Below, in pieces: positions 878-25,486 of a DNA stretch of 42,951 nt (positions are counted from its first letter, which is position 1; each line of letters opens with the position of its first letter). The stretch lies in the NCBI GenBank assembly GCA_025450175.1, contig JANWHY010000011.1, positions 1 to 42,951 of the forward strand. The letters are read 5' to 3'. Origin of the DNA: Minisyncoccota bacterium. Lineage in GTDB: Bacteria > Patescibacteriota > Minisyncoccia > Phycocordibacterales > Zambryskibacteraceae. The notes below the pieces were generated by a model that saw nothing but the letters and a program-made list of their open reading frames with translations, was not told where the DNA came from and made no database searches. The position numbers and the translations under genes were made by a program.

Positions 878-1483
878 CTAACGGTTGTAAAATTCAATAA
901 CCACACGGAGATCGAAGACCTCCCCACCTGGTGCGTATACCGGCTCTCCTACGACCTTAAGCTCTCGGGCTTCCGGATCTACCTCGAGCCACGCCGGTAC
1001 CGTGAGGCTCTTAGCACGCTCAGTAAGGTCGGCGAAGAGCGGACTCGTAGCCGAGGTCGGTCGGAGAGAGACCTTGTCTCCCACCTTGAGAGCGATGGAG
1101 GGGATGGTCACTCTCTTACCATTGAGCATGAGGTGGCCGTGACTTGCAGCTTGACGAGCCTGCCCACGAGTCTTCGCAAAACCTGCTCGGTAGAGTGCAT
1201 TATCGAGACGAGTCTCGAGTTGACTGAAGAGCTTCTGAGCAGGAGATGCGACCTTGAGAGACTTCAACACATAGTTACGGAGTTGCCTCTCGGTGATACC
1301 GTAGTTGAAGCGGCTCTTCTGCTTCTCGGTAAGTTCCTTACCGTACTCGCTCTTGGGCTTAGTCCAACCCTTGCTACTCTTCTCCTTACGCGCGAGAGAT
1401 TGTGCGTACTTAGGACTTTGAGTTTTCTCAAATATTGGGGCGCCAAGACGGCGAGCTAATTTATATTTTGGTCCTATACGCAT
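878..1483 (-). CDS. rpsD: 30S ribosomal protein S4
   Basis: SEYGKELTEKQK, LETRLDNALYRAGFA, ARQAASHGH motifs; position in the alpha operon. Confidence 0.97.
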   Translation of the reverse strand: MRIGPKYKLARRLGAPIFEKTQSPKYAQSLARKEKSSKGWTKPKSEYGKELTEKQKSRFNYGITERQLRNYVLKSLKVASPAQKLFSQLETRLDNALYRAGFAKTRGQARQAASHGHLMLNGKRVTIPSIALKVGDKVSLRPTSATSPLFADLTERAKSLTVPAWLEVDPEARELKVVGEPVYAPGGEVFDLRVVIEFYNR

Positions 1484-1498
1484 AAATTTAAAATTTAA

Positions 1499-1966
1499 CT
1501 ATGTCCTACGAGGCTTAGGGGGCTTGGGGCCGTTATGAGGAACCGGAGTTTTATCCTGAATCGTAGTTAAGTTGATACCCTTTGATATAAAGCCGCGGAT
1601 AGCCGACTCACGACCGGAGCCTACCCCCTTAACTACGACCTTGATCTCTTTAATACCTAATGTCTGAGCCTTTTCTGCTAACTTCTCCCCTACCTTAGCG
1701 GCAGCGAAGGGGGTGCCCTTCTTTGCGCCCTTGAAGCCTAGAGAACCCGATGAGGACCAGGCGAGCGTATTAAATTTTGGATCCGTGAGGGTCAGCTTGG
1801 TGTTGTTGTAAGTCGACTCTACATACAAGACTCCTGAGTCGACACGCTTCTTGGAAGACTTAGACGAAGAAGCTTCCGGAGACTTCTCCGCCCCGCCCGA
1901 ACGACCGTCCGGTCGGGCGGGCTTGTCGTTCTCTGCTTGTACTGTTGCGATTTTTTTCTTACCCAT
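1499..1966 (-). CDS. rpsK: 30S ribosomal protein S11, with an in-frame palindrome-derived PARPDGRSGG insert in the N-terminal tail
   Basis: STYNNT, WSSSGSLGFKGAKKGTPFAA, GSGRESAIR, DKTPVPHNG motifs. Confidence 0.97.
   Translation of the reverse strand: MGKKKIATVQAENDKPARPDGRSGGAEKSPEASSSKSSKKRVDSGVLYVESTYNNTKLTLTDPKFNTLAWSSSGSLGFKGAKKGTPFAAAKVGEKLAEKAQTLGIKEIKVVVKGVGSGRESAIRGFISKGINLTTIQDKTPVPHNGPKPPKPRRT
1892..1921 (-). repeat. 30-bp palindromic in-frame element, copy 1 (in rpsK)
   Basis: Coding strand reads CCCGCCCGACCGGACGGTCGTTCGGGCGGG with 9-bp terminal inverted arms. Identical to 12520-12549. Confidence 0.95.
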
Positions 1967-14622: not shown

Positions 14623-15432
14623 TTATATCAAAAACTCTATAACATCTCCATCCTTCACCACATACTCTTTGCCTTCTGTTCTCACCAAGCCCTTCTCGCG
14701 AGCCTTCACCATCGAGCCATTATTTATAAGGTCTTCGTAGGCGACCACTTGAGCACGGATAAACTTATCTTGGAAGTCGGTATGTATAGACTTACCCGCC
14801 TCGGGTGCTGTCGCTCCCCTCTTAGTCGTCCATGCTCGTGACTCATCCTCGCCAGTAGTGAGGAAGGTGATGAGGTTGAGAAGTTTATAAGACTCGGTGA
14901 TGAGTTGGTCTAAGCCAGTACCAAAGATTGGATCTATCTTTACATACGGTCCCGGCACATTGAAATCTAGATTTTCTGCCGCCTCAGACATATTGAGTAC
15001 ATAGAGTGTTGGCTTCTTAATCCCGGCCTTCTCGAGTTCCAGATTAATAATTTCTATATCGAACAAGGGATCCACCTTCTCATGTACATGGATAATATCT
15101 TTATCTTCGAAAATTCTTACCACTTCGATAATTGCATCAACCTCGCGAATGTGAGATAGGAACTTGTTTCCTAAACCCTCCCCTTCTGCTGCACCCTTCA
15201 CCAGTCCAGCAATGTCTACAAACTCCACAACTGCTGGGATAGTCTTCTTCGACTTACTCATCTCCGAGAGTTTAGTAAGTCGCTCATCCGGCACCGGCAC
15301 GATCCCGACGGATGGGTCGATAGTACAGAAAGGATAATTCTCCGCCGGCACCCCCTTCTTTGTAAGCGCGTTAAAGAGTGTCGACTTCCCGACGTTTGGC
15401 AGCCCTACGATGCCAACAGAAAGCTTGGACAT
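14623..15432 (-). CDS. ychF: Ribosome-binding ATPase YchF, internally shortened (269 aa)
   Basis: GLPNVGKST, NYPFCTIDP, DIAGLVKGA, GLGNKFL, ESRAWT, IHTDF, EGKEYVVKDGD. Confidence 0.93.
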   Translation of the reverse strand: MSKLSVGIVGLPNVGKSTLFNALTKKGVPAENYPFCTIDPSVGIVPVPDERLTKLSEMSKSKKTIPAVVEFVDIAGLVKGAAEGEGLGNKFLSHIREVDAIIEVVRIFEDKDIIHVHEKVDPLFDIEIINLELEKAGIKKPTLYVLNMSEAAENLDFNVPGPYVKIDPIFGTGLDQLITESYKLLNLITFLTTGEDESRAWTTKRGATAPEAGKSIHTDFQDKFIRAQVVAYEDLINNGSMVKAREKGLVRTEGKEYVVKDGDVIEFLI

Positions 15433-15474
15433 AAGAATCTAAAATTACCTTATTTTTAAGCATTTTTCTATGGC

Positions 15475-15503
15475 TTGACAAGTCAAATGCTTTATGCTAG
15501 GAT
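15475..15503 (+). promoter_or_regulatory. Sigma-70-type promoter TTGACA-N17-TAGGAT with an extended TG, overlapping the palindrome TTGAC-AA-GTCAA
   Basis: Direct reading of the sequence. A near-duplicate lies at 18724-18752. Confidence 0.7.
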
Positions 15504-15509
15504 AGAAGA

Positions 15510-15882
15510 TAGAGAGAATAGATAGTCCAGCATGCTTATAGACATTTGCATCGCACCGGCGTCGTTGTATCGTCGCCACAGCATGTGATTGTTATAGGCA
15601 CTGGAGACGGCTCAGTTGAAGCCCCTTACGCAGACGTAAATTGGCGTCCGTGCTGGCGCCCGAGAAGTTCTGCGAGCCCAGGGTCTCTCGGCGACGATCG
15701 AGAGTAGACAGAGGTTTGCTTAGCGGAATTTGGCTACGCAGACTATCGGCGACGCACGCGCTTGCCGATAAGAGGAAGTATCTATTCCCTCGTTCTTTTA
15801 GGAAGAAGTCTAAAACAAAGTGCCGACTGCATACAAACAGGCGGACAGTGGGCCTCAGTTCATATACAAACTGAGGCCTTTT
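15510..15882 (+). ncRNA. Candidate structured non-coding RNA (~375 nt) of unrecognised family
   Basis: Lies between a promoter and an intrinsic terminator, has about 10 consecutive hairpins by eye and no convincing ORF. Confidence 0.5.
15851..15882 (+). terminator. Intrinsic terminator
   Basis: ggcctcagtt-catataca-aactgaggcc followed by tttt. Confidence 0.8.
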
Positions 15883-16172
15883 CGTTTGTAAACAAAATAC
15901 TAGTCGCAAAAAATAAAATTTGACTTCTATACAAGCACGTATTCTAGATGAGAAAATTGCTTGTTATCCACTCGATATATCAGAAATGTTTTTATAAAAT
16001 TAGAGCGCTAAAATAACCGCTTTCGCGGTTGTCTTAGCACCCTTATTAGTGTGTCTCGGCTTCTTATGGATTCCAGAGACGCAACCGTCGGCATCTCTAA
16101 TACTAATGATAATGCTACCGAGCGACAAGTAATTGTGGGCATGATCTGTGGACAGGTGTTGGCCTCGAACGA

Positions 16173-16310
16173 ATGGTAAAAACTAAGACCTTCAGGATTG
16201 GCAGAGACCCAGAAAATGGTGAACTCGTGACAATCAAGAAAGCTGAAAGCAACCCAAAGAAATATATCATCGAAAGAATGCCTAAAAAGGGCTATGGTGA
16301 TACAAAATAA
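16173..16310 (+). CDS. Small basic protein (45 aa), below the ORF-track cutoff
   Basis: MVKTKTFRIGRDPENGELVTIKKAESNPKKYIIERMPKKGYGDTK, followed directly by a terminator hairpin. Confidence 0.55.
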   Translation: MVKTKTFRIGRDPENGELVTIKKAESNPKKYIIERMPKKGYGDTK

Positions 16311-16333
16311 TAACGACAATTAATCGTTAGAGA

Positions 16334-16360
16334 AAAATTGCCTTGCTCGGAGGCAATTTT
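16334..16360. terminator. Bidirectional terminator
   Basis: aaaattgcct-tgctcgg-aggcaatttt between convergent genes. Confidence 0.75.
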
Positions 16361-16370
16361 CTTATTTCAT

Positions 16371-17540
16371 TTATCGATTTCCTTTTGCCCGATTGTGGGT
16401 CTTACACAACATCTCACAATTCTTCGCTGAAGTCGCACCACTCTTGCTCCACGCTGATACATGGTCCGCTTCCATTTCGCCAAAACTCCAAATCTTTTCC
16501 TTATTGGCGTCGTGCCCAATAGCACAATGTGAACAGTTTGATTTCTCTTTGGTTTCAGCTTCCTTAGTTTGTTTTTCGTAAACAGCTCTTTTAGTTGGTT
16601 CGTCAAAAATACGAATATTAAGCAATTTTGTATCGTTTTTACCATCCAATATGTACTCAAAGATTCCCTTCTTATCTTTAACAAAAAAGTCCCCGTAGAG
16701 CTTACGCACATCAGCAGATACTTTGGCTGGATTATATTTCTCTTTACGATATTCCTCGTACAATCGTCCCCATTCAAGACCGCGCATTTCGTTTTCTACA
16801 TCGGTAAATATGCTAGATACCCAATCAATGACAGTGTTAAAATACTTTTTCAACTCATCAATATTTTTGTCTTTGCGATGTTTGCTCATGTAATCGCCAA
16901 TATTACCTTTACTTGTCCAATCCAAAGCACATTCCAAAAACTCCTGCCTGTTGGCACTACCAGATACATAAGCGCTCCATTTCTGAATGTTGGCATTTTG
17001 ACTATTACTAAATTCCTCTTTGGCCTTAGTTACGAATGGACCAGAATATACGGCATTCAGTAATTCTTGATTATTGAGCGGGACACCAGCAATATTTATA
17101 GTCTTAAACCATTCTTTTATCTGGCTTTCTGTTCCCTCACATTCGTAAATAAGCAATTTCGCATCCAAAATTTTAGTTTGTTTGTCTTTCGCCATACCAC
17201 CGAAATATTGTTCCATCCCATTCTCGTCTTTGATAGCAAATTTATCGGTGACAAATCGTCCGAGACTCGTTATACGTTGCTGTCCATCTAAAACTTCAAG
17301 GTTGTCAGCAGAAACTTTATTGAAATAGATTAATCCTATTGGGTACCCCTTCAAAACTGATTCAATGACGGCCATTTCTCTTTTGCCACCGTCAGACGCA
17401 TAAATATAGTTTCGCTGATACTCCGGTTGAATAGTGAGCTTGCCAGACAAGCCAAACAAACCCTTACCCTCAAGCTCGTTATAGACAAAGCCGTCGCAAA
17501 TTTCTTTAACAGCGATGCTGGACTTTAGAGTTGTGTTCAT
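16371..17540 (-). CDS. DUF262 (GmrS/ParB-like) plus C-terminal HNH endonuclease; probable restriction component
   Basis: [28 protein letters not shown], then CSHC...EADH..W..G.T...[13 protein letters not shown]. Start set at the ATG at 17540, just after the MTase stop. Confidence 0.85.
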
Positions 17541-17541
17541 A

Positions 17542-18645
17542 CTATTTTTTCTTCTTATGTCTAATAAAGACTCGCTTGAATGTTTCCTTGCCATTTATGT
17601 ATGACCCGTACCCGTAGACTCCATTCGAGTCTTGGCCAACACCTCGATTTGAACCAAGCAACTCAAATTGATCTGGATTATATTTATCTAGAAAACTGGC
17701 AGGGACCCCCATCACCCCATCATAATCACTAGGAATAGAATCAGTAAATGGGACCTCTATAGCATTATAATTATCATACTTGGTATAAGTTTTTTTGCCC
17801 TTAATCTCTTTGTGTTTGCTGTATTTTAAATTTTCCTCCATCGTCATAAGTGGCAACATTTCGTGACGACGGCCATGATCGAGATTAGTGAACCAACAAC
17901 AATTTCTGAATTTCACTAGACCTGTTTTTGGATCATACACCCCACCAGCATATTCTCTAGTTAAGGGAGTTGAAAAATAGGCATTGCCGGCATTAAAACC
18001 GTTTCCAAGCCACATTTTATTTTCTTTTATCAAAGGAAAAATCTCTTTGTAAATGATGGCATGCAAGTTGCCAATAATCACAAACTTTTTGTTGTAATCA
18101 AAAAGTTGTTTAACATACTCTCGAAACAAACTGAACGGAGGATTTGTTACCACAATATCAGATTGTTTAAGAAGATTTACACATTCATCACTACGGAAAT
18201 CACCCTCGTTTTCTAATGGTGTCCATTCATTGTGTTTGTTTGCCTTTAACTGCTTGGCAACGTCTTTAAGATTAAACTCACCGTCATCATCTACGTCTTT
18301 CACTTCGTTGATAATAAATTTGTTTGCGGTTATCTTAGGACGTCCTTTCGCTTTTGCAAGCGTTTTATCATCACCAAATAATCCTAATTGGGTGTTGGCT
18401 ACTGGTGAAGGCTTGTAGCTGGTGGTAATAAGCTGTTTCAACCCAAGTTTGTTAAAGTTGAGCACAAAATAGCGAAAGAAATTACTTTCGAACGGATCGT
18501 CGCAGTTACAATACACAACTTTGCCACGAAACACATCATGGTCATATTCCAAATATGCCCCGATCTCTTTTTGAATATCGCTGTATTGGGTATAAAACTC
18601 ATCGTTCTTAACCCGTTTTGCATTTGTAAGATTACTGTTTGCCAT
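17542..18645 (-). CDS. Adenine-specific DNA methyltransferase, EcoRI family
   Basis: [43 protein letters not shown]. Confidence 0.9.
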
Positions 18646-18723
18646 AAAGTAATACCACGAACTCTATCATTTTTAGCTTATTTTAACAGTTTTTTATGGC
18701 TCAAACATTAGGCAATCAATAGC

Positions 18724-18752
18724 TTGACAAGTCAAGTATAGTATGATAGGAT
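18724..18752 (+). promoter_or_regulatory. Sigma-70-type promoter TTGACA-N17-TAGGAT
   Basis: Shares gcttgacaagtcaa and tatg.taggata with the promoter at 15475. Confidence 0.7.
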
Positions 18753-18854
18753 ATATAAAGAATCCCTACTCGTTATGGGTAGGTGGCTCGCAAGGGCAAC
18801 GGGGTCAGATTTCCTACCTTGACCAAAGGAAGTGTTCATTACAGTGAGGTCGTT

Positions 18855-19196
18855 ATGGCCAAGATCCTGATCAAGAATGGTCCGCCCGAATTCGACATGA
18901 TTCACGCCTACTTCAGGCAGAGAGGAATGGAAGGTCGTGCGTCCGAGGTCGAGATGACCTTCGGTGAAGAAGGTGATGGCGTGACCAACGTCTGCTACGT
19001 CCGCCTGGACGTCATGATCCCTTGGACCGATTCCACCAAGACGTGGAAGTTCAGGGCGACTGTCGAGACGAAGGAGAGTCGGATCGCTGGTGGCTGTCGG
19101 TGGAAGGCCTTCATTGGCACTTACAGCCTCCAGACAAGAACTGGAGAAGGAGTGTTCGTTGATGGACTTGGTCCATTGAAGGACATCAATCTCTAG
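18855..19196 (+). CDS. Hypothetical protein (113 aa)
   Basis: GAGGT SD before the ATG at 18855, GC3-rich codons, hairpin at 19212-19236 downstream. Confidence 0.65.
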   Translation: MAKILIKNGPPEFDMIHAYFRQRGMEGRASEVEMTFGEEGDGVTNVCYVRLDVMIPWTDSTKTWKFRATVETKESRIAGGCRWKAFIGTYSLQTRTGEGVFVDGLGPLKDINL

Positions 19197-19211
19197 CTCG
19201 TCAGAGTTCAC

Positions 19212-19236
19212 ACGGGGAGACTCAAAATCTCCCCGT
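19212..19236 (+). terminator. Hairpin or terminator
   Basis: acggggaga-ctcaaaa-tctccccgt with a weak T tail. Confidence 0.55.
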
Positions 19237-19309
19237 TCCATCAAAGCAATTAAATCTTTTGATTTCTTTGGTGGGACCATTTCGGTCAATGTTCTTTGAG
19301 GAGGTGGTT

Positions 19310-19609
19310 ATGGCGAGCAGCCAAAAACGCTTAGACCAGATCAACGAGGAAAAGCTGTGGCAAACTGCCCACTATTCAGAAGGTGATCGAGTTTGTGTGG
19401 ACTACCACAAGAGCGAAGTGACTGGCACTGTAGTGCAAGCTCGTAAAAATATCTACGGCCGCTATAACTACAAGGTAAAGTTCGATAAGCCCGTTATTTT
19501 TTACAAGCGGGCCGGTCGTAGCCGAACCGATAGAAAGAGAATCACTATGGAGTCTGATGAGATCCTTCTCGAATTTCTTCATCGCATCAGTGATCCCGAT
19601 ACAGTCTGA
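19310..19609 (+). CDS. Hypothetical protein (99 aa), possibly an SH3/KOW-like beta barrel
   Basis: GGAGGT SD; GDRVCV...TGTVV...YKVKFD pattern. Confidence 0.65.
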   Translation: MASSQKRLDQINEEKLWQTAHYSEGDRVCVDYHKSEVTGTVVQARKNIYGRYNYKVKFDKPVIFYKRAGRSRTDRKRITMESDEILLEFLHRISDPDTV

Positions 19610-19614
19610 GCCCG

Positions 19615-19665
19615 TGAAAGACCCGCGATAACATCGCTAGTCTCTCGCGGGCTCTTTCATTTTAT
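19615..19665 (+). terminator. Intrinsic terminator
   Basis: tgaaag-a-cccgcga...tcgcggg-ct-ctttca followed by tttt. Confidence 0.6.
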
Positions 19666-19696
19666 TATTCACAAAAATTTTTGATACAATTTATAT

Positions 19697-20116
19697 ATGA
19701 CAAAAATCACTGTTCAAACAGAAGTCTATGCTCCCGTAGAAAAAGTTTGGGAACTTTTTAATGCTCCAGAACATATTGTAAAGTGGGGCTCGACTTCAGA
19801 TGACTGGCACACAGTCCGAGCAGACAATGATCTTCGAGTGGGAGGAGAATACAGCTACCGCATGGAGGCTCGAGATGGCAGTGCCGGCTTCGACCTTACA
19901 GCCACTTACACTGAGGTAGTCTCACAAGAATTTATTGCCTACACTATGGTGGACGGGAGAAAGGTAGAAATAGCTTTCCGAAACGACGAGGGTAAGACCC
20001 ACATCACCCAAACTTTCGACGCTGAGAATGAGAATACGATAGATAAGCAGCGAGGAGGCTGGCAAGCTATCTTGGATAATTTCAAAAGTTACGTAGAGAC
20101 TTTAGAGAAGAAGTAG
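19697..20116 (+). CDS. SRPBCC/AHSA1 family protein
   Basis: APVEKVWE, DLRVGG.YSYRMEARDGSAGFD, QRGGWQAILDNFK. Confidence 0.88.
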   Translation: MTKITVQTEVYAPVEKVWELFNAPEHIVKWGSTSDDWHTVRADNDLRVGGEYSYRMEARDGSAGFDLTATYTEVVSQEFIAYTMVDGRKVEIAFRNDEGKTHITQTFDAENENTIDKQRGGWQAILDNFKSYVETLEKK

Positions 20117-20753
20117 CATCGAGAATCTCGACCACAGAATCCCTTAGCTTGTTTACCCTCTCCTTCTTTTCCTTCTTACTCTTACCGCTATTCTCACTCC
20201 CCTTCTCTTCCCTACTATCTTCCTTATCTTTCTTCCCTTCTACAATCCGCGCCCTCAACTCTTTCTTAAGTGAGGTAGAAGAAGCCACTTTTTCTGTAGC
20301 GATATTAAATGACTGTGAGCTCTTCTTGATACTTTCTTCGAGCTTCTTAAACTTCTTGTCATCAAGCTTATCCTTCTCCACCAGCTTCTCGGCCTCAGCT
20401 ATCCGGCGATCAATCTTGGCTTCTTCCCACACAATCTTTTCCTCCGAGCTTCTATGACTTGCTCCCACAAAGGGCTCCACAATCTTGGTCTTTATGGGAT
20501 ATAGGATATCTCCAGGCAAAGAATTACCAGAGACTTGGAGTACTCCCACCGACATGACGAGTACTAGACACGCAACAAGTCCAAAAGTTCGGATAGGAAA
20601 TACATACGGAGACTTTATCGGCGCACTAAAAATCTTCTGGAGCATCTTCTCCTTCTCAGATTGGGAAAGTCTTATACTATTCCACCCCGAACGAATCTTT
20701 TCAAGATCGTACGGGGCAGGACTCTTTATTCCTTTGTTAAATTCTTCATTCAT
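20082..20753 (-). CDS. Membrane protein with a DUF5667-like domain; putative anti-sigma factor
   Basis: One TM then SLPGDILYPIK; ATGA overlap with the ECF sigma gene. Confidence 0.7.
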   Translation of the reverse strand: MNEEFNKGIKSPAPYDLEKIRSGWNSIRLSQSEKEKMLQKIFSAPIKSPYVFPIRTFGLVACLVLVMSVGVLQVSGNSLPGDILYPIKTKIVEPFVGASHRSSEEKIVWEEAKIDRRIAEAEKLVEKDKLDDKKFKKLEESIKKSSQSFNIATEKVASSTSLKKELRARIVEGKKDKEDSREEKGSENSGKSKKEKKERVNKLRDSVVEILDATSSLKSLRNF

Positions 20754-21256
20754 TCTTTGATATGTAACTTTTTCTTAAGATCTTTTAGTCCTCGAGTTAT
20801 GCGTATAGAGACCACATTAGGATTGACCCCAAGTAACTCGGCAATCTCCTGCGGTTTAAGATCTTCTACAAACCGCAGATATACAACCTCCCGAGATTCT
20901 TCCGGTAAACTCTTTAGAACTTCGAGTACTCGACTGACCTCTGCCTCCATCTCTATAGCCTCGTAAGCCCTCTCGTCTTCTATATCTGGAGCGCTCTCTT
21001 CTTCGAAGCTCGTATCGAGAGAGAGGGTCTTCTTCTTCCTATACCAATCGATGATGAGATTGCGAGCTGTTCTATATAGGAAGCCTTTTCTATTACTCAC
21101 CTCCTCGCCACTAGCCAACTTCTGCCACAGACGAGCGAAGGATTCTTGTACCAGATCTATAGCCCTCTCCCTGTCAGATACTCTAAAGAGCGAGAAGCGG
21201 AAGAGCTTATCCGCCTCCTCCTCATAAATTTGCTCGAATTGTTCTCTCCTACTCAT
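20750..21256 (-). CDS. ECF-type RNA polymerase sigma factor
   Basis: Region 2 (DLVQESFARLW, FLYRTARNLIIDWYRK) and region 4 (LRFVEDL..QEIAELLG...VSIRITRG); 168 aa. Confidence 0.92.
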   Translation of the reverse strand: MSRREQFEQIYEEEADKLFRFSLFRVSDRERAIDLVQESFARLWQKLASGEEVSNRKGFLYRTARNLIIDWYRKKKTLSLDTSFEEESAPDIEDERAYEAIEMEAEVSRVLEVLKSLPEESREVVYLRFVEDLKPQEIAELLGVNPNVVSIRITRGLKDLKKKLHIKE

Positions 21257-21319
21257 GACGGTGGGGCCTCTCTATCCTTTCATAATTTGGAGTTGAAAGG
21301 AATTCGTACGTAGAACGTC
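21257..21319. promoter_or_regulatory. Two divergent ECF-type promoter motifs, TGAAAG-N16-CGTC
   Basis: Plus strand: 21294-21299 and 21316-21319. Minus strand: 21282-21277 and 21260-21257. Both spacers are 16 nt. Confidence 0.6.
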
Positions 21320-21367
21320 TACTATATTGGCGCCTCGGCGCAAGAATAATACCTATTACTTAACCAT

Positions 21368-22285
21368 ATGACTATCCACATTATTAAAAGGTTTGCCTTA
21401 CCCCTTATCCTCGCCGTCCTAATCTTAGGCGTGGGTACCTTAGCCTATGCTAAGGAGAACGGTAATCAAGATAAGAGCGATAAGAAAGTGCAGGTTGAGA
21501 AGAACAAAGCAGAAAGAAAGCAAGATAAGAAAGAGATCAAGCTCTGCTTCCGAGCTTTCGGACACCTTATAGCTCCCGGCTTTATAAAGCATCATGGAGA
21601 AGTAGACGTAGACCTTAGTAACTGCTTCATCCCCTTCGGCATCGCTAAGAAGTTCCGTGGTGTAGCCTCTTCTACTACGCAAGATCTTATAGCTCCGACT
21701 ATTACCGATGTTAAGATCGTGACCACTACCAACAAGGCAACTATCACCTGGCATACGAGCGAACGCGCAGACACTACCCTATTCTGGAACACTTCCGCCG
21801 GCGTCAATGTAAGTAGCACTTCAACTCCGAAGATCGCTAACGCTACAGAGACCAAGGATCACAAAGTAGTTATCCCTAACCTTACCGCCAGCACCACTTA
21901 CTACTTCGTATTAAGATCCAAAGACCATTCAGGCAACGCTACCACCTCAAGCGAAATGAGCTTCACTACTAAAGGAGCACCAGTAGACACTGCGGCTCCT
22001 ACCATCTCAAGCATAGTGATCCTGACTAGCTCCTCTACCGCCACAGTAGGTTGGCATACAAGCGAGAACGCTACTTCCAAGGTTTACTTCGGCACTCTAG
22101 ACGCTCTCAATGTAAACGCTACAACCACAAGCTTCGTAGAGACTAATGCTCTTACCGAGAACCACTCTCTGCAAGTCACCAGCCTGGCCTCTTCTACTCC
22201 CTACTTCTTCGCGGTCGAATCTAAAGACGCAACAGGCAACAGAACAGTCAGTCCCATCTTCACCGCTACGACCTTAGGATTGTAA
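21368..22285 (+). CDS. Secreted Thr/Ser-rich protein with two fibronectin-III (purple-acid-phosphatase-N-like) repeats
   Basis: Signal peptide, GHLIAPG motif, and two repeats of D..APTI...AT(I/V).WHTSE...H...L..ST.Y(Y/F)F...SKD..GN. Confidence 0.8.
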   Translation: MTIHIIKRFALPLILAVLILGVGTLAYAKENGNQDKSDKKVQVEKNKAERKQDKKEIKLCFRAFGHLIAPGFIKHHGEVDVDLSNCFIPFGIAKKFRGVASSTTQDLIAPTITDVKIVTTTNKATITWHTSERADTTLFWNTSAGVNVSSTSTPKIANATETKDHKVVIPNLTASTTYYFVLRSKDHSGNATTSSEMSFTTKGAPVDTAAPTISSIVILTSSSTATVGWHTSENATSKVYFGTLDALNVNATTTSFVETNALTENHSLQVTSLASSTPYFFAVESKDATGNRTVSPIFTATTLGL

Positions 22286-22303
22286 TAGCTCCAGCATTCA
22301 ATA

Positions 22304-22335
22304 AAACAAAAAGAGCCTTGCGGCTCTTTTTGTTT
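22304..22335. terminator. Bidirectional terminator
   Basis: aaacaaaaagagcc-ttgc-ggctctttttgttt between convergent genes. Confidence 0.85.
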
Positions 22336-22336
22336 G

Positions 22337-22915
22337 CTATTTAGCCTGTTTCCCCATATTAAAAACTTTCTTCTTGATCCGTTCGCGGCGGCCAGTGGTG
22401 TTGAAGTGTTTGAGGTAGCCAAACTTCTTGACACGAATAGGGCCGAAGCCGGCAAACCAGAGAGCACCATTGCGTAACTCATTGGTCGTATCGCCGAAGA
22501 TTATGCGCTGAGCAAGTGGGATAGTGTCTGAGGTGACTATCATTCGCGCGCTTCTGCCCTTGAGTAACTTAATCCAGGTAAATTCGCCCGTAAACTTATA
22601 AGCAAAGCCCGGAATCCAGGCTCGATCGATGAGACCCTTGAGAAGAGCTGGCATAGTCGACCACCATGATGGATAGAAGATTACAAAGTGGTCACACCAC
22701 CTCACATTCTCTTGGAAGGATAATAGATCGGGCTCGAGCTCTTGGATCGTGCGGTAGCCATGGTGGAGGATGGGGTCAAACTTCATTTCACCCAGATTCA
22801 TCCGGCGGACTTCATGACCTCCAGTCTCCGCGCCCCTCTCATACTCACTCGCCAATGTGAAGTTGAAACTGTCGTTATCTGGGTGACCGAGAAGTATGAA
22901 AATTTTCTTCGACAT
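22337..22915 (-). CDS. NAD(P)H-dependent oxidoreductase, flavodoxin-2 family
   Basis: LGHPDNDSFN, LEPDL, YPSWWSTMPALLKGLIDR...PGFAY. Confidence 0.88.
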   Translation of the reverse strand: MSKKIFILLGHPDNDSFNFTLASEYERGAETGGHEVRRMNLGEMKFDPILHHGYRTIQELEPDLLSFQENVRWCDHFVIFYPSWWSTMPALLKGLIDRAWIPGFAYKFTGEFTWIKLLKGRSARMIVTSDTIPLAQRIIFGDTTNELRNGALWFAGFGPIRVKKFGYLKHFNTTGRRERIKKKVFNMGKQAK

Positions 22916-25271: not shown

Positions 25272-25276
25272 ATGTG

Positions 25277-25349
25277 TGGACCCTAGCGGATTCGAACCGC
25301 TGACCTCCTCATTGCAAATGAGGCGCTCTACCAACTAAGCTAAGGGCCC
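25277..25349 (-). tRNA. tRNA-Ala(TGC), CCA not encoded
   Basis: GGGCCCTTAGCTTAGTTGGTAGAGCGCCTCATTTGCAATGAGGAGGTCAGCGGTTCGAATCCGCTAGGGTCCA; G3:U70 pair. Confidence 0.97.
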
Positions 25350-25412: not shown

Positions 25413-25486
25413 GGGCCCATGGTATAGCAGTAACACGCGTCCATGGCATGGACGAGTCCGGGGTGCGACTCCCCGTGGGTCCACCA
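25413..25486 (+). tRNA. tRNA-Ala(GGC), CCA encoded, atypical D and T loops
   Basis: GGGCCCA...CGTCC-ATGGCAT-GGACG...GGGG-TGCGACT-CCCC...TGGGTCCACCA; G3:U70 pair. Confidence 0.92.

Follow-up and report, generated by a model that had tools for sequence, protein, structure and literature searches.

A proposed class of structured accessory RNA with its own promoter and terminator in a Minisyncoccota bacterium

Positions 15475-15889 (plus strand) of a 42,951-nucleotide (nt) stretch of DNA from a Minisyncoccota bacterium, hereafter the window, are, with a probability of about 0.8, a self-contained transcription unit for a non-coding RNA (ncRNA) of an undescribed class. The folded core of this RNA, here called core A, is most likely a new class of accessory, trans-acting structured RNA that serves as a protein- or ligand-binding scaffold. 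A first-pass annotation, made from the letters alone, had proposed an uncharacterised large ncRNA with its own promoter and terminator, a proposal that gains support from the lack of a matching Rfam family, from promoter and terminator scans, from folding and from covariation. The window is contig C11 of a 442,116-bp assembly (G000) in 12 contigs that is 96% complete, and the genomes of the candidate phyla radiation (CPR) considered here are ~0.4-0.6 Mb in size. Little idle sequence is expected in genomes this small, and RNA family libraries represent CPR bacteria poorly. An RNA of ~290 nt that combines invariant junctions with a 12-helix covarying fold and a consensus promoter carries the signature of a specific role, be it binding, catalysis or assembly, and even with a modest function the core A family is a new target for structure determination. 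Working labels are used where needed (Gnnn for genomes, Lnnn for loci, Cn for contigs, Xn for sequencing runs and their contigs); core B is a second RNA found in relatives, and R1 is the covariance model (CM) of core A.

Transcription signals and comparative structure

The unit sits in a 940-nt gap separating two minus-strand genes and opens with a promoter, TTGACA-N17-TAGGAT, that had been read from the letters and was recovered by a consensus scan at 15475-15503. Its -35 element is embedded in a near-palindrome (CTTGACAAGTCAA, 15474-15486), and its -10 element is of the extended type (TGCTAGGAT, last base 15503). All three core A variants keep TTGACA-N17-TAnnnT and the upstream TG, with differing spacer letters. 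At the other end, the terminator that had been placed at 15851-15882 was found by a terminator scan, on the plus strand only, as an 11-bp stem at 15850-15879 followed by a U-rich tail, TTTCGTTTGT. The positions of promoter and terminator are constant across the variants despite divergent surrounding sequence. Transcription from the sigma-70 consensus promoter is predicted to start at ~15506-15510, and the transcript is predicted to end at ~15882-15889, after the tail of a 3' module (T1, see below) with its intrinsic terminator. G-U pairs had been cited as favouring the plus strand; they make up 11 of the 99 consensus pairs in the window sequence and, together with the promoter and the terminator, fix that strand as the RNA.

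Comparison with relatives supplied the evidence on structure. A blastn search against 60 relatives gave two meaningful matches, one in G025 (C3:79891-80077, 73% identity to window 15603-15798) and one in G022 (C39:1071-1176, 97% identity to window 15787-15892 only). The G025 homologue of core A is full-length and has a promoter (TTGACA-N17-TAAACT) and a terminator of its own. From pattern scans of public collections came three further copies of the G025 type and three copies of a third type (L043, L046 and L051), in which the core is ~97% identical to the window and the promoter sequence and 3' extension differ. The core A class is defined by a match to CM R1, by P1 as terminal helix and by two invariant junctions, UAGACAGA and AAGAGGAAG; the model scores 231.2 bits on the window and ~221 bits on G025 and on six metagenome or genome loci of the two types. 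Three of the seven metagenome pattern loci (L045, L047 and L049) had no CM match and were discarded as chance pattern hits.

With the window and G025 alone, RNAalifold gave 79 pairs, 22 of them with compensatory double changes. The consensus of the three distinct core sequences (window, L046 type and G025) has 99 pairs in 12 helices. Double changes occur in 25 of these pairs, compared with 8.2+-2.3 in shuffled alignments, and 95.2% of cells are paired, compared with 88.2%; neither value was reached in any of 500 shuffles. Slid controls gave 1-6 pairs with double changes and 39-44% of cells paired. Environmental contigs show changes of the same kind. In contig X1, two pairs of P6 are swapped (15689 C>G and 15690 G>C, matched by 15699 C>G and 15700 G>C), and in the RNA-library contig X7 the variants 15722 A>G and 15741 G>A each preserve pairing within P7. 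The alignment of window and G025 also contains two 4-nt indels that break every reading frame, so no reading frame is conserved; the open reading frames (ORFs) at 15510-15882, already suspected to be short or spurious, can be read as such, and the homologues in CPR genomes conserve base pairs instead of an ORF.

The folding energies point the same way. The plus strand of 15510-15882 folds at -142.3 kcal/mol against a shuffle mean of -114.1 (standard deviation 5.48; z -5.15; none of 100 shuffles equal), and the core (15506-15800) at -116.6 kcal/mol against -93.06 (z -4.53; none of 200), so that unit and core both fold better than shuffles (z -4.5 to -5.2). The reverse strand also folds well (-133.9 kcal/mol against -108.35; z -4.76; none of 100), as does the neighbouring spacer at 15883-16370 (z -3.56), and because of this spacer low z-scores alone are not decisive here.

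In the consensus fold, the loops and junctions of core A are invariant and its helices covary (Table 1). In the P2 rod (helices 2-4), eight pairs show double changes when G025 is compared with the window/L046 type. The loop of P3, CAGUUGA, is invariant, the block GCTCAGTTGAAG is unchanged throughout the alignment (A6), and GAC after the P2 rod and GCGAGCCCAGGGU within 15629-15684 are invariant single-stranded elements. Two rival closing pairings, CCUU/GAGG (15624-15627 with 15773-15776) or CCCU/AGGG, are both invariant and both putative. Candidate tertiary contacts, present in all three sequences, would join the P2 apex CGUYG to the P6 loop CGACG and the P3 loop to the P7 loop; as modelled, all of these are invariant or wobble-rich. 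The comparative structure retains much of the hairpin list of the first-pass annotation, namely the P2 rod, 15609-15623, 15685-15704, 15713-15744 (P7), 15745-15770 (P8) and the terminator. Two listed hairpins at 15633-15648 and 15653-15681 are instead modelled as a nested hairpin (15629-15674) plus a small one (15676-15684), and a supposed hairpin at 15772-15791 is actually the conserved junction AAGAGGAAG and the 3' strand of P1, the helix that closes the whole core and was absent from that list. The remaining two, at 15796-15815 and 15821-15847, lie in the 3' module beyond the comparative alignment, where single-sequence folds disagree.

Parts of the stretch also occur in 20 listed sequencing runs (16 studies), with a share under 0.4 in each, and contigs from four of these runs were compared in detail. 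Three of them (X7, X10 and X8) come from three metatranscriptome libraries of three studies, and their contigs may be compatible with an abundant small RNA.

Distribution, genomic context and exchangeable parts

Core A is an accessory gene, patchily present in a few groundwater bacteria with tiny genomes: it stands in non-homologous contexts, in a minority of related genomes and in variable regions between genes. Searches with CM R1 found it in 2 of 37 genomes of the genus, gave no verified match among 150 sampled genomes of the order, and found it in 0 of 150 sampled genomes of the class; two weak partial matches in the order sample (G072, 18.5 bits, and G125, 17.3 bits) are read as unverified. 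No core A was found in plasmid or phage records by blastn, and three pattern scans of viral contigs gave 0 matches. A core B motif did give 10 matches in viral contigs, all in unrelated GC-rich, coding-like sequence, and a viral origin was rejected.

The genes flanking core A differ at every locus. In G025, its neighbours are a 62-aa ORF without a Pfam match and, downstream on the same strand, VIT1; at L046 the neighbours comprise an unknown protein of 256 aa and a gene of the PolyA_pol family, with the next gene convergent. The description of the RNA as lying beside a defence cassette therefore holds for the window, where genes for a GmrSD_N+HNH protein and an EcoRI-type methylase lie to its right, but is not general, since other loci (G025 and the three loci of the L046 type) differ. 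Contig X1, 6572 nt of mine-drainage metagenome DNA, matches the window over exactly 15473-15890, with 15 differing letters and one gap over 418 nt, and both of its flanks are unlike the window. Similarity bounded in this way implies that the conserved unit is the transcription unit itself, a cassette that is 96-97% conserved across unrelated flanks. In G032, the gene beside ychF is a homologue of window 22343-22909, which identifies window 15433-22337 as variable. The core B cassettes of G032 and G025 likewise interrupt gene pairs that are directly adjacent in G000. A group I intron match (46.7 bits, E value 8.8e-10), truncated by the end of the locus, was seen in G025 (L011:2988-3187, in C3), ~1.2 kb from the core A homologue.

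The ~375-nt unit can be divided into the ~290-nt core and a separable, exchangeable 3' module of ~85 nt, T1 (15799-15882). T1 is 97% identical in G022 (C39:1071-1176), where it stands behind a different RNA of ~367 nt, core B. At L046, L043 and L051, it is replaced by another module of ~130 nt, and in G025 it is absent, with P1 leading almost directly into the terminator. Core B itself was found by blastn and a second CM in 3 of the 37 genus genomes (G022, G032 and G025) and spans 124-367 nt, a size range due to nested insertions. Its 5' part is conserved as AGAGGGUAAAAGUU.GGGUGGAGUCGU.CGACAG and its 3' end as GGACCACCCUCG. The two cores resemble each other in their AGAGRG start and CCCUCG-YUCYU end, in promoter architecture, in an upstream element, in sharing T1 (G022) or a terminator (G025) and in accessory insertion. 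For example, core A and the minimal core B of G025 have nearly the same terminator and a common upstream promoter element, AGCCATATTT..N..TTGACA. In sequence and fold, by contrast, the cores have no detectable relation; cross-searches with both CMs and filters off gave at best 6.7 and 5.6 bits, and homology of the two is unsupported. The promoter plus AGAGRG was also tried as a family signature and rejected. It gave 18 matches in 12 of the 37 genus genomes, of which five are known core A or core B RNAs and 13 are not of either type, most of them reflecting an mRNA's Shine-Dalgarno sequence and start codon. By eye, one and the same short hairpin lies on either side of core B in G032:C2 (L053), in opposite orientations, CCCTCCCCTTTGCAGGGGAGGG upstream and CTCCCCTGCAAAGGGGAG downstream; these are possibly elements of the repetitive extragenic palindrome type, or terminators, at the insertion borders.

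Shown in Table 1 are the coordinates of the unit, its neighbours and the compared sequences.

Table 1 Features of the core A transcription unit, its surroundings and related sequences (positions without a prefix refer to the window)
Feature	Location	Strand	Remarks
Promoter region	15467-15504	+	first copy of the 38-nt direct repeat D1
-35 TTGACA	15475-15480	+	consensus promoter scan
-10 TAGGAT	15498-15503	+	17-nt spacer; TG ahead of hexamer; 10/12 consensus positions
Core A RNA	15506-15798	+	~290 nt; 12-helix fold closed by P1
P1 terminal helix	15506-15524 with 15780-15798	+	encloses whole core
P2 rod	15526-15605	+	three stacked helices; base UCCAG/CUGGA conserved, apex variable
P3 hairpin GGCUCAGUUGAAGCC	15609-15623	+	helix 5; loop invariant
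P5 domain, nested hairpin	15629-15674	+	helices 6-9 together with 15676-15684
3-bp hairpin	15676-15684	+	consensus model; follows P5
P6 hairpin	15685-15704	+	helix 10; invariant loop GCGACGAU; double changes in 4/7 pairs
Junction UAGACAGA	15705-15712	+	invariant in A6; unpaired in consensus
P7 hairpin	15713-15744	+	helix 11; conserved loop GGAAUUUG; double changes in 5/11 pairs
P8 hairpin	15745-15770	+	helix 12; apex CGCACGCGC; 2 pairs with double changes
Junction AAGAGGAAG	15771-15779	+	invariant in A6; runs into 3' strand of P1
T1 body	15799-15849	+	hairpin near 15796-15815, A/C-rich linker, hairpin near 15821-15847
Intrinsic terminator	15850-15889	+	11-bp stem 15850-15879, 8-nt loop, U-rich tail
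ychF GTPase	14623-15432	-	left neighbour of RNA
GmrSD_N+HNH protein	16371-17594	-	defence-type; right neighbour of RNA
EcoRI-type methylase	17542-18645	-	defence-type; next after GmrSD_N+HNH gene
Second promoter/palindrome copy	18716-18753	+	38-nt direct repeat D1
Core B copy, G022	L010:710-1076		~367 nt
Core B copy, G032	L053:~1500-1716	-	
Core B copy, G025:C5	L054:~1411-1534	-	124-nt minimal form
Gene pair adjacent in G000	C4:2594-3028/3069-4034		split by core B in relatives
Gene pair adjacent in G000	C10:36976-37791/37809-39083		split by core B in relatives
X7 contig	covers 15523-15778		soil metatranscriptome; 258 nt
X10 contig	covers 15701-15848		metatranscriptome; 163 nt
X8 contig	covers 15493-15661		wastewater metatranscriptome; 222 nt; plus 53 nt of different promoter region

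Comparison with known RNA families

At Rfam gathering thresholds, the sole match in the window is a tRNA at 25277-25349, and no family is assigned to 15510-15882. With permissive filters (E<=10), the region 15400-16400 gave seven matches, each well under its cut-off, the best at 17.1 bits against one of 50 bits, and RNase P RNA, transfer-messenger RNA (tmRNA), signal recognition particle (SRP) RNA and 6S RNA are not among them. The homologues of core A likewise have no Rfam match on the RNA itself. The view that the RNA lacks tmRNA ends and RNase P or SRP motifs is in line with ARAGORN and Rfam scans, which were negative for all three. ARAGORN reports two tRNA-Ala genes and no tmRNA (RF00023) in the window, and the tmRNA of the genome lies at C3:56-454 (86.5 bits). 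For SRP RNA (RF00169/RF01854), there is no match in the region or the genome, and presence in 2 of 37 genomes is unlike a universal RNA. The small and large bacterial SRP models also gave no credible match in the five genus genomes G000, G025, G032, G022 and G028 (best E 0.53); because they fail in the four other genomes too, their sensitivity in this lineage is doubtful, and either the SRP RNA of the genus has diverged strongly or the first-look filter misses it. A regular-expression search of the genome for an SRP domain-IV-like motif found scattered matches in coding-like sequence only and was dropped. For 6S RNA (RF00013), the region has no match, and the core fold is multi-branched, not a rod with a central bubble; the sole weak 6S match in the genome is at C12:5120-5254.

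Guide and template RNAs, such as the omega-RNA/HEARO, TnpB right-end, IS110 bridge, retron and defence-associated reverse transcriptase (DRT) RNAs, are like core A in being structured, with a patchy, mobile distribution and modular ends. They differ in that the 5' end of core A is paired in P1 and not free as a guide. Candidates of this kind were set aside. A search for reverse transcriptases (PF00078) gave 0 candidates in G000 and G032, which excludes a template RNA of a retron, a DRT or a diversity-generating retroelement there, and no IscB, TnpB or IS110-type gene is among the neighbours, nor is there a HEARO match. A type III antitoxin RNA (ToxI-like) was rejected on finding 0 tandem repeats in 15400-16400, and membership in a riboswitch or other cis-leader class was rejected since the downstream genes differ or are convergent at every locus.

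The raiA motif, ROOL, GOLLD and OLE RNAs offer a further comparison. Core A is like them in being stand-alone and patchy and in having many helices with conserved junctions. It differs in having no CM match to them, a smaller core of ~290 nt and an exchangeable 3' module, and so far it is found in few genomes of one CPR genus and in related metagenome contigs. These RNAs are orphan, stand-alone molecules of a few hundred nt with many helices and conserved junctions, with no known biochemical function and, for some, a patchy or mobile-element-linked occurrence, properties described in part in PMC10861870 and PMC12286853. No description of an RNA like core A was found in the literature searched, which covered ncRNA of CPR/Patescibacteria and large ncRNAs.

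Possible roles and competing explanations

A model for core A can be outlined as follows. The RNA would act in trans as a folded molecule, its invariant junctions and loops coming together as a tertiary pocket or surface for the binding of one specific partner. This partner would most likely be a protein, a small ligand or another RNA being less likely. P1 would shield both ends of the RNA, and the swappable 3' module may provide termination and stability or a second binding module. The RNA would not be expected to encode a protein, to act in cis as a leader, or to serve an adjacent enzyme as guide or template. Among the modes of action, a protein-binding scaffold or sequestration is the leading candidate, if a tentative one. 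A role tied to the island that the RNA heads is a good deal less likely, the binding of a small ligand is rather improbable, and catalysis or self-assembly is more doubtful again.

Several points weigh against this interpretation. Only three distinct full sequences of core A are at hand, two of them 97% alike, so the covariation is mostly one comparison, that of the window type with G025; three sequences are also too few for a statistic of R-scape grade. The RNA data are assembled contigs, which give no transcript ends, strand or abundance, and because X8 runs into a promoter region, DNA carry-over is possible. The data do not separate protein binding from ligand binding, catalysis or self-assembly, and the partner protein is a postulate. 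The cassettes of the window and of X1 are trailed by cargo genes and a second promoter copy, which could point to a role bound up with a mobile island and not to an independent function in the cell. Finally, the presence of rnpA without a detectable RNase P RNA leaves a small opening for a substitute role in this genome.

Among the rival explanations, the likeliest, which we still consider unlikely, holds that the RNA is one module of a small mobile or defence island, in which cassette, variable cargo (GmrSD-HNH and methylase) and second promoter copy form a unit, and that the RNA would serve its maintenance, regulation or movement, for instance as an antitoxin-like, regulatory or recombination-guiding molecule. 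The promoter of the RNA is part of a 38-nt direct repeat, D1, whose two copies (15467-15504 and 18716-18753) are 79% identical, carry the palindrome CTTGACAAGTCAAG over the -35 element and bracket the RNA, the GmrSD-HNH gene and the EcoRI-type methylase. X1 is laid out alike: 2088 other letters lie between the cassette and a second copy of 15473-15504. In both cases the RNA heads a repeat-bracketed island with restriction-type cargo and without a recombinase. The GC content of 16001-19000 is lower (0.39-0.40 compared with about 0.46), 15433-22337 is variable by comparison with G032, and cassettes act as insertions in relatives. The second D1 copy precedes, and is read as driving, two unannotated plus-strand ORFs, 18855-19196 and 19310-19609 (113 and 99 aa). 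The former has no homologue among 36 genus genomes, a further point for an island; for the latter, the only match, to Glyoxalase_8, stays below threshold (21 bits; cut-off 23.7 bits). On the other hand, no integrase, transposase, reverse transcriptase, IscB/TnpB or toxin family adjoins the RNA, and tandem repeats of the ToxI type are absent. None of five other loci (L046, L043, L044, L053 and L054) has a repeated promoter within ~2.5 kb, and ordinary genes are the neighbours there. The same palindromic promoter type also stands ahead of ordinary small-protein genes in G014, G031 and G032, so the repeat may reflect no more than a common type of promoter.

A broader and more speculative proposal, which we regard as improbable, is that core A and core B belong to a CPR-specific superfamily of modular, horizontally shuffled RNA cassettes in which the folded core itself is the active agent of an accessory function that needs no protein or host proteins only. 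The cores would then be interchangeable, each set between a common promoter element and 3' tails that can be swapped, and each closed by a terminal helix. Such a core could, for example, work as a defence or counter-defence device made of RNA alone, assemble with itself, or act as a ribozyme that marks the small islands it heads or moves them. The accessory occurrence of core A, its shuffling between genomes with exchangeable tails and the regulatory flanks that it has in common with core B suggest a pool of mobile RNA genes in these organisms, one not described in the papers searched.

A cis leader or riboswitch, whose terminator would gate read-through into downstream plus-strand genes, is very unlikely, and so is a riboswitch-controlled small RNA with the 3' module as effector. 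The targets would be ORFs 16066-16179 and 16173-16310 in the window and the VIT1-family transporter in G025. A complex, aptamer-like core directly ahead of a terminator would suit such a role, as would the same-strand position of VIT1 in G025 and of the two small ORFs in the window, and a core with an exchangeable 3' module resembles riboswitch-regulated small RNAs. However, the downstream genes are unrelated between loci and convergent at L046, similarity between loci ends at the terminator, Rfam offers no riboswitch match, and the small ORFs have no family match. These two ORFs (37 and 45 aa, 3' of the RNA) overlap by ATGGTAA, and neither has a Pfam match.

Still less credit can be given to the idea that the RNA stands in for the RNase P RNA of this genome or is a highly divergent form of it, tempting as this is made by the presence of rnpA (C8:64841-65095) in G000 with no detectable RNase P RNA. 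A whole-genome search with RF00010 and RF00011 had no match, not even at E<=10; nhmmer with a profile built from 12 RNase P RNAs of the genus gave only E>=1.4, and the RNase P motif GAGGAAAGTCC has no occurrence in the assembly. The likeness of core A to RNase P RNA includes size, a closed multi-helix architecture that fits loosely, 5' and 3' ends that meet in a terminal helix and a stand-alone gene, and its strings GAGGAAGU, AGUCC and ACAGA may resemble conserved regions of RNase P RNA. Against this stands G025, which carries both core A (C3:79890-80080) and a canonical RNase P RNA (C5:241985-242432, 94.7 bits), so core A is not RNase P RNA. Core A is present in 2 of 37 genus genomes, whereas RF00010 matches 29 of 36 relatives, the seven without a match including the 96-98% complete G027 and G019. 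The region has no RNase P match at E<=10 and no similarity to the 12 genus RNAs (z -1.5 to 2.6), and neither a P4-type pairing nor a P4-type pseudoknot is evident. The short motifs are also in the wrong order. The RNase P element GAGGAAAGUCC, or a one-base variant, lies near the 5' end of most printed genus sequences, whereas all that core A offers is GAGGAAGU towards the 3' end and AGUCC at the 5' end. The missing RNase P RNA of G000 could reflect an assembly gap, or real divergence or loss; since the assembly is in 12 contigs and 96% complete, the real gene may lie in a gap, which counts against a substitute. With both RNase P RNA and SRP RNA undetectable here, claims of missing RNAs in CPR genomes need care.

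Two side observations concern RNase P RNA elsewhere in the genus. ORFs of at least 90 aa around the RNase P RNA of G025 (C5:238500-246000) have no tblastn match in G000 (E<=1e-5), which hints at large differences in gene content within the genus; among them are a membrane protein of 778 aa and an ORF that resembles, by eye, a MurJ-type flippase. G022 has two RF00010 matches, C41:4649-4978 (77.4 bits) and C7:389-820 (52.4 bits), which may reflect duplication, a divergent form of RNase P RNA or contamination.

That the region holds no functional RNA at all, being instead a GC-rich spacer that folds by chance or the remains of a protein gene, is scarcely credible, because the good folding of the minus strand (z -4.76) and of the adjacent spacer (z -3.56) is outweighed by compensatory changes in 25 of 99 pairs, well above the controls, by conserved promoter and terminator positions, by 96-97% conservation amid unrelated flanks and by frame-breaking indels.

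Elsewhere in the window, a bidirectional-looking terminator was seen at 16334-16360, and two tRNA-Ala genes, 25276-25349 (minus strand, TGC) and 25413-25486 (plus strand, GGC), form a divergent pair 63 nt apart.

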